Part shown: one piece after another, positions 15,476-31,134 of the stretch
How positions within the stretch are numbered: the stretch's first letter is position 1
Layout of the letters: each line of letters starts with the position of its first letter
Source of the DNA: an uncultured archaeon
GTDB lineage: Archaea > Asgardarchaeota > Lokiarchaeia > Sigyniarchaeales > Promethearchaeaceae
Direction of reading: 5' to 3'
Length of the DNA: 32,000 nt
NCBI GenBank assembly: GCA_964426185.1
Contig: CAYRPF010000005.1
Location: 45,867-77,866, forward strand
Position numbers and translations under genes: made by a program
The notes under the pieces: generated by a model
What the model was told of the DNA's origin: nothing
The model's input: only the letters and a program-made list of their open reading frames with translations
Database searches by the model: none

Positions 15476-15546
15476 AATTTCTTTTGCTTTCGTGTATATG
15501 ATTATTTAATAGAATATCTCAACTAATTAATAAATAGGGTGATCAA

Positions 15547-15954
15547 ATGATTCGCTGGCTCTTTACAGTTTCATTTATAAATTACATGAAATCCAAATCA
15601 TGGGAGATTTCAGGAGAAAAGGATGAAAATCGAACTATTGCTTCGCCAGTAGCGATAGCAATATTCACAGCCTGTACTTTGGGTTGATCCATGAGTAATT
15701 TCTTTCCATTTGAGGTAGCCGGGATGCCACTAGAAGAAGCACAAAATGACCCAGGATTAATTCAGGTTGAAACGAGTAACAAACCAGAATGGTTGCAAAT
15801 ATTTGTAGAAAAATCGATAATACCTGATTTAATCGATCCTATGATCTTGGATTATTCATTGCTAAACGAGGTTGAATTTCCTTTTGTGGTAATAAATCCT
15901 CAATTAATAGATGATCTTCAATTCTATGGCAATGTATCATTAGAGCAGGAATGA
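15547..15954 (+). CDS. HesB/IscA-fold protein with in-frame UGA (candidate selenoprotein, 135 aa, Sec47)
   Basis: ATG 15547 has a GGTGA RBS (15538-15542) and is in frame with ORF 15691-15954; the only interruption is TGA 15685-15687. Read-through gives ...AIAIFTACTLG-U-SM...LQIFVEKSIIPDL...MILDY...FVVINP, colinear with IscA/HesB (SGCSG...VVVD...LDF...FxFxNP). Confidence 0.7.
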
Positions 15955-16020
15955 TCCTTTGATAGAAATTCTTCAATAAATAAGGAAAATCAAAGGGAAC
16001 GCCAAGCAAATGGATGCTCT
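15942..16020 (+). promoter_or_regulatory. SECIS-like hairpin candidate
   Basis: ATGA (15951-54); stem CCTTTGAT/ATCAAAGG; A-rich internal loop AGAAA/AA; ministem TTCTT/AAGGA; 3' GA (15997-98); basal pairing AGAGCA/TGCTCT; followed by a T-tract. Confidence 0.5.
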
Positions 16021-16105
16021 TTTTTTTCGATTTCGAAATTACAAAATAGAAAAATGCTGATATATTATCCTAATAAGGAATAAAAAAAAGAATCAGGTTA
16101 GCAAG

Positions 16106-16954
16106 TTGAAACGAACACGAAAAGAAGAATATCATGAAATTATATCTCAAATACCAGAATTGGAATATCACCCAACTTCACCATTCATCCAAGTGAATAA
16201 TTTAGTAAAGAATTTTAAATTAGGTGATACCCAAATCCAAGCAGTAGATAATATTACCTTGAACATTCATCAGCATGAATATGTAGTTATTGTGGGTGAA
16301 AGTGGTGCTGGAAAAACCACATTACTACATTTATTGGGTGGGTTAGATAAACCCAGTGCAGGAAAAGTGATCTTGAGCCATATAGATCTTTCTCATTTTG
16401 ATCAAGAAACTTTGGCCACTTTTCGCATATTCACAGTTGGAATCGTGTTTCAAAATTATAATTTAATTTCTTCCTTAACATCTCTTGAAAACATCTTATT
16501 CCCAATGCAATTATGTGACTTTACAGTTGAGGAAAGCCTTAAACGAGCAACTGAATTATTAGAATCTGTTGGTTTAAGTGCCCGTGCAGATCATCTTCCT
16601 TTTCAATTAAGTGCAGGAGAGCAGCAAAGAGTAGCAATTGCTCGGGCATTGGCACTTAATCCGCCTATTATTCTTGCAGATGAACCTACTGCCAATCTGG
16701 ATAAAACTAATGCAGAATATATTGGACGACTTTTTGAAGAACTCCGACAGCAAGGTAAAACCGTAGTATTGATATCTCATGATGAGAAATTAATCAAACA
16801 TGCTCATCGAAAGCTGGAAATGGCCGAAGGAAAAATTGTTAAAGATGAAATTCTTCAAGAAATTATTTTCAATGATTCTATCGAAAATTTTGCTACTAAT
16901 TTAGATGAAAATTCTACCGTAAATTCAGAGAAAAATTCCGAAGAGGGGATGTGA
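16106..16954 (+). CDS. ABC transporter ATP-binding protein (LolD/MacB-like)
   Basis: Walker A GESGAGKTT, signature LSAGEQQRV, Walker B ILADEPTANLD, H-loop SHD. Confidence 0.93.
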   Translation: MKRTRKEEYHEIISQIPELEYHPTSPFIQVNNLVKNFKLGDTQIQAVDNITLNIHQHEYVVIVGESGAGKTTLLHLLGGLDKPSAGKVILSHIDLSHFDQETLATFRIFTVGIVFQNYNLISSLTSLENILFPMQLCDFTVEESLKRATELLESVGLSARADHLPFQLSAGEQQRVAIARALALNPPIILADEPTANLDKTNAEYIGRLFEELRQQGKTVVLISHDEKLIKHAHRKLEMAEGKIVKDEILQEIIFNDSIENFATNLDENSTVNSEKNSEEGM

Positions 16955-18894
16955 TGAGTTATAACTTTGCTTTGAAAGATTTAATGCGACATCCCAAGCA
17001 AACTCGCGCCTATATGCGAAATACTATCTCTATCTTGACATTTTTTTTAACATTTTGGAACTTAATGCGCGGGTTTGGATATCTTCTCATGCCATCATCT
17101 ATTCAACAATATAATTTCACTATTTATGAAATCATCACTCAATTTTATTTCTTTTTATTCATCCTTACCTCAATTCTTGCTGGTCTTCTTTTAATTCTCA
17201 ATAATCATGCCATTATCCAAGATCGAAAGCGGGACATTGGAATCATGAAATCAATTGGAACCTATCCTTCTCACTTGTATAGTTTTTATTTAAGCGAATT
17301 GTTTATTTTATTTGTAATTTGCTTCTTAGTGGCATGGTTTTTTGCTTTCATGCTGTATCTCGTTCTTTACTTACTTGTCCATCCCTTTTATCCTATATTT
17401 TCTTGGGTATCTGATCCGTCTGTTGCCTTCATAAGCTTTTTTGGGTTGATTGTAGCAATCTTCATCTTTAATGGCTGGGAAATTCGAAAAATTGGACGTT
17501 CCACTTATGCCGAAACGAAATCTGGAGTTATTAAAGCAGGAATTCTGGGTAAATTATCTGCAAAACTCCGTAGTTGGTTGTCAAAACGTTCTGCTGCGGT
17601 TAACTTAGCCTTTCGCAACATCCTTCGCAAGAAACATAAGGTACAACAAACTTTGGCGATAGTAGTTATTGCTAATATCGTAATATTTTCTAGTTTCTTT
17701 GGATTACTCATAATTAATTCAACTGGAAGAAGCTATATTTCCCAAGCCCAAAGCGATTATGTAATTGCAATAGGGAATAATGCCCTTTTAGAAACATATA
17801 CTCAAGGATATGCCAGTTTCACGAATTCAAATATTGAACTTAATTCTGAGATAGATTATCTGCAATCGATGAATAATTTGACTCGTTTTTATGCCAATCT
17901 GTCTGAATATCTAAAAAATTATGGAATTAATGCTGTAGACAAGCGCTTGTTTACCATTAAAAATATCACCGAAGATCCAGGAGTGGTGTTGCAAAATTTT
18001 GTAGATCCCACTACTGGCCTAGAATCGCAAGAATATGTGTTAATCGGAGGAAATAAATCTCGAACCATTCCCATTCAAGGTGTAAATTTCGGAGAAACGG
18101 TTCAAAATTGGTACTATGAAGGTGCTATGCTCAATTTTGAATATGGAGTAGCCATTGGAGATACTTTAGCAGGTGAAGTTTATACAAATCCTCTTGTACA
18201 ATGGTTTCTATACTCAAATTCTGCTACAAATCGGACCTACCGGCACAAAGTAAATGCAATTGTATTTGACACCTTCAATAGGGGAAATTCTGCCTATCTA
18301 TACTTAAACACTTTACAAGAAACTCTCGGTAAGCCGAATTATACCAATCTTTTCTTAGTAGATTACACTTCACTGGTTATAAATTCGGGGGAAGACGCTG
18401 TCAATTCATTTATTTTCGAATTAGAAGATCTAATTCATACTCAATTGGGAGAACAATTTGGATTAGTTGATTTAAGCCCAATTCTTAAACATAATCTGAA
18501 TTCCCTTCAACCAGTTATAATTACACTTTTACTTTTGATTTTAATGATGAGCATGGTAGTGATTTACAATATATTTAACTTTGAAAAAGGGCGGGTTCAT
18601 GAAGATAAAAAAGACTATGCCATTCTTCTTGCCATTGGGGCAAAACAAAAGACTTTGCAGAATTCAATTTTCTTAGAACTTGGATATTTGGCAATTTTAG
18701 GTGTAGTATTAGGTTTTATTGGAGCTATGTTCTTTAATATTGTGTTTTTATTAGAAGAATCTACTCGTCCAAGTATATGGATCCCCATATCTGCTGTGGG
18801 TGCTCAAATTATCATTCTTTTAGGATTAATGGCTGGAATTTCGCGGTTTTTCCAATTCAAAGAACAAAATGATTATCTTGCCATTACCGTATAA
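16951..18894 (+). CDS. ABC transporter permease (FtsX-like, two permease domains)
   Basis: FtsX motifs DRKRDIGIMKSIG and KKDYAILLAIGA, with a large extracytoplasmic domain. It overlaps the ATPase stop. Confidence 0.88.
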   Translation: MMSYNFALKDLMRHPKQTRAYMRNTISILTFFLTFWNLMRGFGYLLMPSSIQQYNFTIYEIITQFYFFLFILTSILAGLLLILNNHAIIQDRKRDIGIMKSIGTYPSHLYSFYLSELFILFVICFLVAWFFAFMLYLVLYLLVHPFYPIFSWVSDPSVAFISFFGLIVAIFIFNGWEIRKIGRSTYAETKSGVIKAGILGKLSAKLRSWLSKRSAAVNLAFRNILRKKHKVQQTLAIVVIANIVIFSSFFGLLIINSTGRSYISQAQSDYVIAIGNNALLETYTQGYASFTNSNIELNSEIDYLQSMNNLTRFYANLSEYLKNYGINAVDKRLFTIKNITEDPGVVLQNFVDPTTGLESQEYVLIGGNKSRTIPIQGVNFGETVQNWYYEGAMLNFEYGVAIGDTLAGEVYTNPLVQWFLYSNSATNRTYRHKVNAIVFDTFNRGNSAYLYLNTLQETLGKPNYTNLFLVDYTSLVINSGEDAVNSFIFELEDLIHTQLGEQFGLVDLSPILKHNLNSLQPVIITLLLLILMMSMVVIYNIFNFEKGRVHEDKKDYAILLAIGAKQKTLQNSIFLELGYLAILGVVLGFIGAMFFNIVFLLEESTRPSIWIPISAVGAQIIILLGLMAGISRFFQFKEQNDYLAITV

Positions 18895-29481: not shown

Positions 29482-30252
29482 TTAAAAATCTTCATTTTTG
29501 GTCGGTGCTGTGGGAGCTGTAGGTAGCAATATTTCAGATAGCATTTTTTGATTTGGGCGAATAAATTTTTTTCCAAATCCCGAAATAGCGGTAATTTCAT
29601 CAGGTGAATTAATAATTGCATCAAAAACAGCCGCAGGCGAATCAAATTTTTCCAGTAACTTAATGGCTTTCTTTTTACCACAATTTAGTAAACCTTTGAT
29701 TAAGTAAATTTGGGCATCAGCTAAAAAAACCCTTTTCTCCGAAATTCGGGATAATTTGGGAGGTAAATCACTTATTTGTTCTCGATGAGCAATTCGTAAC
29801 AAAATTTCAATAGAATCTGCTGTATTCCGTCCGGGAATGAAAATAGGCATGGCGGTATGTTTGGATTTGGAATGCGCTGTGGATATATCTAAAGGGGTAA
29901 AAAATAGGTTGGTGATCAAGAGTTGCCATTTTTTACGGTTGGATTCCCCCCAACGATGAAATCCCTCGGCGATTATAATTCCATAGGGATATTTTTCTAT
30001 AAAATTACGGATATCCGTTATTAACGCTTCTATAGAATTTGATCGTAAATCTTGGCTGTGTAAGTGGTAGGCGGCCCCTTGAGATGGAATAATAAACCAA
30101 TGCTTAGGATACTGGAAGTATAAAATTTCTACTCCAAGATCGATTAGTTGTTGAACTAATTTCATCTGCGGTTTAGATTGATCTTGATTACATTGAATAT
30201 GATACTTGGAATAATCGATATTTGTTGAAGAGTGATGAGAAATATCCGGCAT
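29482..30252 (-). CDS. Catalytically inactive ERCC4-fold + (HhH)2 protein (ERCC1/Eme1-like)
   Basis: Aligns along its length with the adjacent nuclease but lacks GD and ERKxxxD. HhH motifs GLLNCGKKKA and ISGFGKK. ATG 30252 is preferred over 30315. Confidence 0.75.
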   Translation of the reverse strand: MPDISHHSSTNIDYSKYHIQCNQDQSKPQMKLVQQLIDLGVEILYFQYPKHWFIIPSQGAAYHLHSQDLRSNSIEALITDIRNFIEKYPYGIIIAEGFHRWGESNRKKWQLLITNLFFTPLDISTAHSKSKHTAMPIFIPGRNTADSIEILLRIAHREQISDLPPKLSRISEKRVFLADAQIYLIKGLLNCGKKKAIKLLEKFDSPAAVFDAIINSPDEITAISGFGKKFIRPNQKMLSEILLPTAPTAPTKNEDF

Positions 30253-30348
30253 ATTTCGCTTTGAACCCCTTATATTACTTAAGCTTTTAGGGAATAATAA
30301 ATTCCCTCCTCTCATTATATTTTTAATTTTTTGGGAAGCATATCAACC
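30253..30348. promoter_or_regulatory. Short divergent (bidirectional) promoter region
   Basis: 96-nt gap between head-to-head ATGs, with TATA-like TTATATTT (~30315-30322, +) and TAATATAA (~30270-30277, -). Confidence 0.45.
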
Positions 30349-31134
30349 ATGGCAATCCAAATAATTATGGATGAACGGGAACGAGGAGAAATTCGGCAAC
30401 AGATGAAATCTCTACCTGTGGATCTCAAGATTCATACTTTGGATGTTGGAGATTATATTCTCTCTCCCAGAACTGTGGTCGAACGTAAGCGGGGTGATGA
30501 TTTTGTAGCAAGCATTTTTGACCAACGGCTCTTTTTACAGCTGGAAAAGTTGAAAATTTCTTATCCTCACCCCATACTCATTCTAGAGAATCCCAAACGT
30601 ATGTTTGAGCGGAAATTTATAAACACTAAGGCAACATTCGGCGCATTGGTCTATGTTAGCACGCGTTTGGGAATTCCTATCATTCCTACATCTGGAATTG
30701 AACAGACGGCTTCAATTTTATTTGAAATCGCTCGCAGTGAGCAAGAACAACTTCACGAACAAAAACAACAAGCTCAAGAGCAAAAACAAACTCAGCAATA
30801 TGAACAAAATCAAAATGAAGATTGGATTCATCAGACCGCTGCCACTGTGGGAATTTCACGGGGTGATCAAACGTATTTTCTGCAAGGGTTAATCGATGTA
30901 GGCAGCCAACGCGCAGAGCAGCTGTTGGATATGTTTCAAACCCCTGCTAATATTCTATATGCTTTTGATTTAACTGATATAGTTCGCACCAAATTTGGAA
31001 ATCCAAAAGGAATAAGCGGTGTCCTAGCCGAAGTTTCAGGCATAGGGCCTAAAATTGTCGATAGAAATCAAAACTTACTGCATTTTTCATATAAACAAGC
31101 AAAAAAAGAGAAGAAAAGGGTGAAAGTGAATTAG
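30349..31134 (+). CDS. ERCC4-domain structure-specific endonuclease (XPF/Mus81/Hef nuclease type) with (HhH)2
   Basis: IIMDERE, LDVGDYIL and VVERKRGDDFVASIFDQRLF form an intact GD...ERKxxxD site. HhH motifs GLIDVG and VSGIGPK. ATG 30349 is preferred over TTG 30331. Confidence 0.92.
   Translation: MAIQIIMDERERGEIRQQMKSLPVDLKIHTLDVGDYILSPRTVVERKRGDDFVASIFDQRLFLQLEKLKISYPHPILILENPKRMFERKFINTKATFGALVYVSTRLGIPIIPTSGIEQTASILFEIARSEQEQLHEQKQQAQEQKQTQQYEQNQNEDWIHQTAATVGISRGDQTYFLQGLIDVGSQRAEQLLDMFQTPANILYAFDLTDIVRTKFGNPKGISGVLAEVSGIGPKIVDRNQNLLHFSYKQAKKEKKRVKVN

Follow-up and report, generated by a model that had tools for sequence, protein, structure and literature searches.

A small Lokiarchaeial gene with an in-frame UGA is predicted to encode a selenoprotein of the IscA/HesB fold

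Two small open reading frames of a Lokiarchaeial contig very probably constitute a single gene of 135 residues (positions 15547–15954), in which an internal UGA would be read as selenocysteine (Sec), as judged from its homologues, a SECIS-like element at its 3' end and the Sec machinery of the genome. Positions refer to the window, that is, the whole stretch of 32,000 nucleotides analyzed here, and all features of the locus are on its forward strand. The source assembly comprises 3.26 Mb and is 92% complete; a genome of the same genus is that of Candidatus Harpocratesius repetitus FW102, a metagenome-assembled genome of the Lokiarchaeial Promethearchaeota.

The start codon (ATG, 15547–15549) opens a frame of 46 codons that runs to a TGA at 15685–15687, in the context Cys43-Thr-Leu-Gly-TGA-Ser (C-T-L-G-U-S). 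The TGA corresponds to the predicted Sec47, and its partner in the C-x-x-G-U motif would be Cys43 (TGT, 15673–15675), which is nearly invariant in the group of genomes to which the window belongs. An ORF of 87 codons (15691–15954) lies in exactly the same frame as the upstream ATG and ends at a second TGA (15952–15954), the read-through product being 135 residues long; the extent of this coding sequence (135 codons plus the UGA stop) is in line with the family alignment, the AlphaFold2 model and its structural matches, and the pN/pS values given below. A Shine-Dalgarno-like GGTGA motif (15538–15542) is located 4 nt upstream of the ATG, with GGAAGGG at the equivalent spot in the orthologue L006, and an A/T-rich, TATA-like box (15503–15517), read from the sequence as the putative promoter and also with a counterpart in L006, is found ~30–45 nt 5' of the start codon. 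On the 3' side, a tract of eight U (16020–16027) directly follows the SECIS-like element, and the T8 is kept in L006. Oligo-T is an archaeal transcription termination signal, and the tract is probably a terminator. Further downstream, an ABC ATPase (16106–16954) and an FtsX-type permease (16951–18894) are recognized by Pfam in a conserved order.

This layout bears out a preliminary description of the locus, according to which an upstream ATG with a GGTGA motif is in frame with the 87-residue ORF and separated from it only by the TGA at 15685–15687. The same description proposed a 135-residue selenoprotein with a C-x3-U arrangement that gene callers would fragment, and this proposal is likewise supported: callers give only a part of 76 or 87 residues, and the public annotation of the locus is either such a fragment or a protein with Trp at the Sec site. 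Moreover, other, independent assemblies of this species (NCBI, ENA, JGI and Logan; loci L008, L010 and L012) have the identical TGA, and therefore it is not a sequencing error.

In a six-frame family search, 400 genomes of the phylum yielded 28 matches. In 26 of these a single in-frame TGA stands at the same alignment column, and they are distributed over at least 12 genera. One match of this search, L048, is spurious. The most informative comparison is with the orthologue L006/L007, 66–70% identical and with the same gene order, where the upstream ATG, the frame and the TGA are all retained in spite of a 15-nt in-frame indel (a deletion in L006/L007), and where the codons flanking the TGA have undergone synonymous changes (TGT>TGC, ACT>ACG, GGT>GGA). 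This combination of an intact upstream frame, an in-frame indel and adjacent synonymous changes argues that the TGA is not there by chance. In the family-level group of the window, the gene is found with TGA in 8 of the 13 other genomes, always as C-x-x-G-U (CTLGU, CKLGU, CSLGU, CSIGU, CTMGU, CKIGU and CATGU being the variants across genomes), and in a ninth genome (L030) the Sec column is occupied by a genuine Cys codon, in C-T-S-C. Also, the metagenomic sequence P0010, which has an insertion of 2 residues, is of the Cys form, and the distant homologue L021 has TGA at the Sec column. The expectation of the preliminary description that homologues would show Cys or TGA at this site rather than Trp, Arg or another residue agrees with what was found: TGA in 26 genomes, Cys in L030 and P0010, and no true Trp or Arg codon.

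In protein databases, an exhaustive HMMER search of 1.84 billion representatives recovered only 20 relatives, most of them calls of ~80 residues that start just past the Sec position. The full-length relatives in the databases (P0002, P0011, P0014 and P0015) carry W at the Sec site, and where the DNA is readable (P0002, P0011 and the DNA of L021) this W is a TGA called under another code. These four entries are full-length only because they stem from short contigs called with TGA as Trp, and in the case of P0002 the call overruns the real stop. P0002, which is 99% identical across the TGA, was considered as independent support and rejected, being the window's own DNA called with TGA as W.

Conservation extends to both sides of the TGA, as anticipated in the preliminary description. 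The N-terminus M-[VP]-K-W-x-F-T is kept across genera in the family alignment, and the comparison of the window with L006 before the TGA gives a pN of 0.27 and a pS of 0.80. For other pairs, the dN/dS of the N-terminal part is between 0.11 and 0.29, and most pairs have a pN clearly lower than their pS both before and after the TGA; in the close pair L025-L026, few changes yield an N-terminal dN/dS of 0.8. In addition, L021, L028 and L029 have no Met closely after the TGA, and therefore their downstream part is not translatable on its own.

A sister group is present in 18 of 135 genomes of the neighbouring family, with the motif S-[SE]-T-U-T-M-x-F-C-G-N. It is homologous to the window's group with the Sec columns aligned (hhalign probability 97.5%, E 7.5e-12). 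Across the two groups, the Sec column is fixed and the partner Cys shifts, from C-x-x-G-U and C-x-x-C to U-x-x-x-x-C.

The stop codon of the gene is embedded in a SECIS-like element (15942–16020) of the type that has been called type II eSECIS-like, or lokiSECIS, in Asgard archaea. The lokiSECIS is described as an AUGA 5' of the stem, an A-rich loop and a GA 3' of the stem (AA in VhuU), often located at the stop codon (PMC4989117), and the type II eSECIS-like model consists of a GA_[G/A]A core, an upper stem of 7–15 bp and a ministem (PMC11227280). The element of the window folds as a two-tier hairpin, as does that of L006, and the layout in other relatives is alike. Its lower stem pairs AGAGCA (15942–15947) with UGCUCU (16015–16020), and the AUGA core (15951–15954), which overlaps the stop codon, lies in the internal loop above it. 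The upper helix (15955/15956–15963 with 15989–15996/15997) has 8 bp, or 9 if a U-G pair is included, and leads to an A-rich apical loop that begins with AGAAA at 15964 and encloses a ministem of 5 bp (UUCUU/AAGGA, 15969–15973 with 15982–15986) present in both the minimum free energy and the centroid folds. The 3' core is AA (15998–15999), that is, the AA variant and not GA. The window element has the lokiSECIS/type II features, namely the 5' AUGA, a helix within 7–15 bp, the 3' [G/A]A, the A-rich loop start and the ministem.

With a descriptor composed of AUGA, a helix of 8–9 bp, an A-rich loop and [G/A]A within ~30 nt of the stop, a clean element is detected in 18 of the 26 TGA loci and an element with one bulge in 5 more; by the same descriptor, the TGA-bearing L021 and L029 have no clean SECIS. 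The background of this descriptor is 995 matches in 6.5 Mb, counting both strands of the genome, which corresponds to ~0.7% of 45-nt windows. The Cys orthologue L030 has no SECIS-like element within 240 nt 3' of its stop. In L040 (genome G243), AUAA replaces AUGA ~6 nt past the stop of the sister-group gene and the in-frame TGA is kept, which could mean that the gene is decaying, that the variant is tolerated or that the assembly contains an error. Helix conservation was counted formally in the sister group, where 93% of the cells are paired (39–52% in slid controls) and 6 of 9 pairs have compensatory changes, a level that none of 500 shuffles reaches. For the window's group, three covarying helix positions (T-A/A-T, T-A/C-G and C-G/T-A) were read by eye.

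Other searches for the element were negative. The single-sequence fold z-score of the window element is −0.38, which is not significant, and Rfam, which holds no Asgard SECIS model, gave no SECIS family match on the whole window at gathering thresholds or on 15900–16060 at E<=10. A covariance model derived from 16 SECIS elements of the sister group missed the window element as well as the VhuD and SelD elements of the same genome, which says little because the model is bound to the primary sequence and the 11-nt loop of that group.

The genome has the components expected for Sec decoding, with one weaker member. The tRNA-Sec scores 51 bits with Rfam, above the gathering score, and is called by ARAGORN as tRNA-SeC with anticodon tca; SepSecS is found with 345 bits; and EFSec/SelB scores 248 bits, above the curated cut-off, the next GTPase being 100 bits lower. 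SelD is itself encoded with an in-frame TGA, in H-G-U-S-C-K (contig C26:310-1305, locus L019, minus strand). The presence of these genes agrees with the preliminary description, which had named the machinery as a check on the proposal; the match of a PSTK-like gene is weak, with 100 bits against an equivalog cut-off of 290.5. A VhuD-like gene (contig C88:8547-8915) contains two in-frame TGA, has an AUGA-type SECIS and is followed by a run of N. The SECIS of SelD is of the GUGA type and is located ~60 nt 3' of the TAA stop. Both the VhuD and the SelD elements have the same geometry as the window element, with loops that begin with GUAAAC.

Further small genes of the same genome deserve a mention on their own. 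Contig C15 has, at ~29760–30400 (L058:1118-1749, minus strand), two small IscA-like genes in tandem. The first encodes a Cys form, R-S-C-C-S-T, matched by NF041239 with 32.7 bits and by PF01521 with 22.2 bits, both below the cut-off, and directly behind it lies a paralogue whose frame contains two adjacent TGA, T-S-Q-U-U-G-L. A scan for AUGA, a helix and [G/A]A combined with an in-frame TGA gave two more candidate selenoprotein genes on the minus strands of contigs C16 and C86, whose SECIS AUGA are at reverse-complement positions 32894 and 11613, respectively. Both candidates contain Y-[KR]-G-U-C-G and have an IscA/HesB-like start, M-x-I-[ST]-x-E.

The structure of the product was predicted with AlphaFold2 from an alignment of 12 sequences in which U was replaced by C, giving one compact domain with a pLDDT of 84.1 and a pTM of 0.80. 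The predicted elements are a strand (4–7), a helix (8–22), a second strand (35–41), the loop with Cys43 and Sec47, a strand at 55–61 and four further strands. The 46 residues before the TGA would be a part of the domain, because the predicted N-terminal strand and helix are integrated in it. The 12 top Foldseek hits are all IscA, SufA, HesB-type or DsrR structures, with weak E-values of 6e-3 to 0.7. In VIA-align, which is independent of Foldseek, the seven top chains are all of IscA/SufA/HesB type, with Z-scores of 8.4, 7.8, 7.1, 7.1, 7.0, 6.5 and 5.6 and the next chain at 3.2, although such Z-scores can also reflect a common arrangement; the best chains are those of SufA (2d2a_B, Z 8.4, rmsd 3.2 Å over 92 residues) and IscA (1r94_A, Z 7.8). 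The model of the sister group (pLDDT 76.7) gives the same seven chains on top, followed by a Z of 2.6.

However, the similarity is structural only, and no sequence model matches. When the read-through protein, its halves and 12 and 15 family members were compared with Pfam and NCBIfam, only noise resulted, PF01521 included; the 12 family members have no Pfam match at E<=10. A search of PDB sequences with the family profile gave no IscA-type match. Also, the hhalign comparison of the family with eight canonical Asgard IscA sequences is not significant (E 0.26), the alignment being co-linear with G-U placed on the G-C of P-G-G-C. The modelling supports an IscA/SufA/HesB fold for the product, and the relationship to IscA/HesB claimed in the preliminary description holds in structure and not in sequence models. 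Its further claim, that the Sec occupies the first conserved Cys of IscA/HesB, is sustained insofar as Sec47 sits in the same β2-β3 connection of the predicted model, whereas the exact position is otherwise given only by the non-significant hhalign pairing. The absence of the C-terminal Cys motif of IscA was noted correctly: the family alignment has no conserved C-terminal Cys, in contrast to the invariant C-x-C of Asgard IscA.

Regarding the gene neighbourhood, the gene precedes the ABC ATPase and the FtsX-type permease by 110–230 nt on the same strand in 9 of 9 checked loci of the window's group, the Cys orthologue included. The sister-group gene (L032, L033, L035 and L044) is arranged head-to-head with a P-type cation ATPase (Cation_ATPase_N and E1-E2_ATPase). 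The neighbours of both groups are transporters, of different kinds. No canonical PF01521 protein turned up in the 40 other genomes searched in the window's order, nor in a second sample of 75 genomes from the two Lokiarchaeial families. Such proteins were found in 15 genomes of other Asgard families, and in one other Asgard family 11 of 11 genomes have them. The distribution of PF01521 is possibly complementary to that of the IscA-fold selenoproteins.

Based on these data, 15547–15954 would be a single gene for a cytosolic selenoprotein of 135 residues, transcribed probably as a monocistronic mRNA that ends at the U8 tract. The SECIS hairpin would most likely recruit the archaeal EFSec:Sec-tRNA(Sec) complex, whereby the UGA of codon 47, 266 nt 5' of the SECIS AUGA, would be read as Sec. 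The terminal UGA within the SECIS core would still terminate translation, as has been proposed for Lokiarchaeota (PMC4989117). In the folded protein, Sec47 and Cys43 would be in the β2-β3 connection, where A-type carriers have their first cluster-ligand Cys. A canonical three-Cys Fe-S site cannot form, because the two C-terminal ligand cysteines are missing. Judging from the motif and the fold, the Cys/Sec pair may act as a redox-active selenenylsulfide or as a soft-metal- or chalcogen-binding centre, an assignment whose chances we consider about even.

We hold the interpretation of the locus as a Sec-decoding selenoprotein gene with high confidence, on the strength of sequence comparison and modelling, and two other accounts of the TGA have to be weighed against it. 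It could be a genuine stop, in which case there would be two small genes, an upstream ORF and the 87-residue gene translated by termination-reinitiation at the ATG at 15691, or else a nonsense pseudogene. This would fit the gene callers, which annotate only the 76- or 87-residue part, and the ATG that the window and many relatives have two codons past the TGA. Nonetheless, we regard a genuine stop as very improbable in view of a TGA kept at one column in 26 genomes and at least 12 genera and exchanged for a Cys codon in L030, of the lack of a nearby downstream Met in L021, L028 and L029, and of 46 N-terminal residues that are under purifying selection and whose strand and helix are integral to the predicted domain. 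Moreover, the TGA forms come with a SECIS-like element, which the Cys form lacks. The other account accepts read-through but with Trp or Cys inserted, by near-cognate decoding or under a reassigned code, and the public entries that show W at this position (P0002, P0011, P0014 and P0015) would seem to favour it. However, this W is TGA under another table wherever the DNA is readable, and UGA is not reassigned, because the same gene ends at UGA and the large genes of the genome are open under table 11. The genome also has a Sec pathway and other Sec genes, and the natural replacement at the site is Cys, the usual counterpart of Sec; consequently, insertion of another amino acid is, to us, just as far-fetched as a genuine stop.

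A different question is what the selenoprotein does. It could be a stand-in A-type carrier, a homodimer in which Cys43 and Sec47 bridge a [2Fe-2S] or [4Fe-4S] cluster or bind iron. The predicted IscA/SufA fold, the location of the Cys/Sec pair in the loop where the first cluster ligand resides, and the lack of canonical PF01521 in every searched genome of the Lokiarchaeial order, as opposed to its presence in the 15 genomes of other Asgard families, are consistent with such a role, and two ligands per subunit are enough for dimer-bridged clusters in Nfu and monothiol glutaredoxins. On the other hand, the protein lacks the C-terminal C-x-C ligands, the position of the partner Cys varies within the wider family, and the conserved neighbours are transporters and not Fe-S assembly genes, which makes the carrier an unlikely alternative, even if it is the main one. 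The reading that we prefer is then a redox-active or soft-metal Cys/Sec centre built on an IscA scaffold. A broader scenario, more doubtful still than the carrier, is that Lokiarchaeia, whose searched genomes gave no canonical PF01521, carry instead a radiation of IscA-fold Sec/Cys proteins that serve as selenium-ligated carriers of clusters, metals or chalcogen. Besides the C-x-x-G-U family, its members may include the sister family (S-T-U...C) as well as the G-U-C-G candidates and the CC/UU family found in the same genome. If that scenario were true, several unlisted families would be added to the archaeal selenoproteome, which now stands at 11 families.

The finding of this family from genome sequence means that the selenoprotein lists do not fully cover the prokaryotes most closely related to eukaryotes. 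The predicted protein would add a Cys-x3-Sec centre outside the thioredoxin fold for study, and the loci provide more natural examples of eukaryote-like SECIS, including one whose AUGA contains the gene's own stop codon; such elements would be useful for understanding how UGA-Sec and UGA-stop are distinguished without SBP2. In practical terms, the public annotation of the gene would have to be corrected, being wrong both where it stops at the fragment and where it places Trp at the Sec site.

A recent review lists 119 prokaryotic selenoprotein families, 11 of them archaeal (PMC13188914, 2026), and the survey of the Asgard selenoproteome reports seven: SelD, FrhA/VhuU, HdrA, FrhD/VhuD, Prx-like, AhpF-N-like and DsbA-like (PMC11227280). 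The Asgard surveys are homology-based and start from known selenoprotein families (PMC4989117, PMC11227280). The family described here is missing from both the 11 archaeal families and the Asgard survey, and we regard it as a new family of IscA/HesB-fold selenoprotein, a member of neither the TIGR01911 nor the NF041239 model.

The nearest known systems share part of its features. The HesB-like selenoprotein of Methanococcales and anaerobic bacteria (TIGR01911, HesB_rel_seleno) is likewise small and consists of one domain, of IscA/HesB fold, with a single Sec, and in that family Sec and Cys forms interchange (PMC1794560, PMC13188914). However, its model matches neither the window protein nor anything else in the genome at E<=10, and only 1 of 15 sister-group members is matched, weakly (E 0.0012). 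The HesB-like family is listed with the motif UxGP (PMC13188914), and not with GCSG as quoted in the preliminary description, whereas the window family has C-x-x-G-U-[SAT]-M (G-U-S-M in the window); the HesB-like family is also not among the seven families of the Asgard survey (PMC11227280). The CC/Se family (NF041239, Moor_selen_rel) resembles the window family in its small size and in a paired Cys/Sec centre that follows an N-terminal strand-helix-strand. Nonetheless, its model misses the window locus and matches contig C15 of the same genome instead, the hhalign comparison of the window family with the CC protein of C15 is not significant, and its Cys/Sec pair is adjacent (CC, CU or UU), unlike the C-x3-U of the window. 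With the A-type carriers IscA, SufA and ErpA (PF01521), the window family shares the fold, the order of secondary structure elements and a Cys/Sec in the β2-β3 connection; it differs from them in the lack of sequence-profile similarity, of the C-terminal C-x-C and of the NPNA motif, and in having a second Cys four residues before the Sec.

For the RNA element, the closest counterparts are the lokiSECIS and type II eSECIS-like elements (Mariotti 2016, PMC4989117; Huang 2024, PMC11227280), with which it has in common the AUGA placed directly before a helix of 8–9 bp, the A-rich loop start, the [G/A]A and the ministem. The double use of the AUGA as stop codon is found in the window gene as in VhuU.1 of the lokiSECIS descriptions. 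Unlike the surveyed lokiSECIS, the window element serves an unlisted gene family, and in this Harpocratesius-like genus it carries the AA 3' core, an allowed but less common form.
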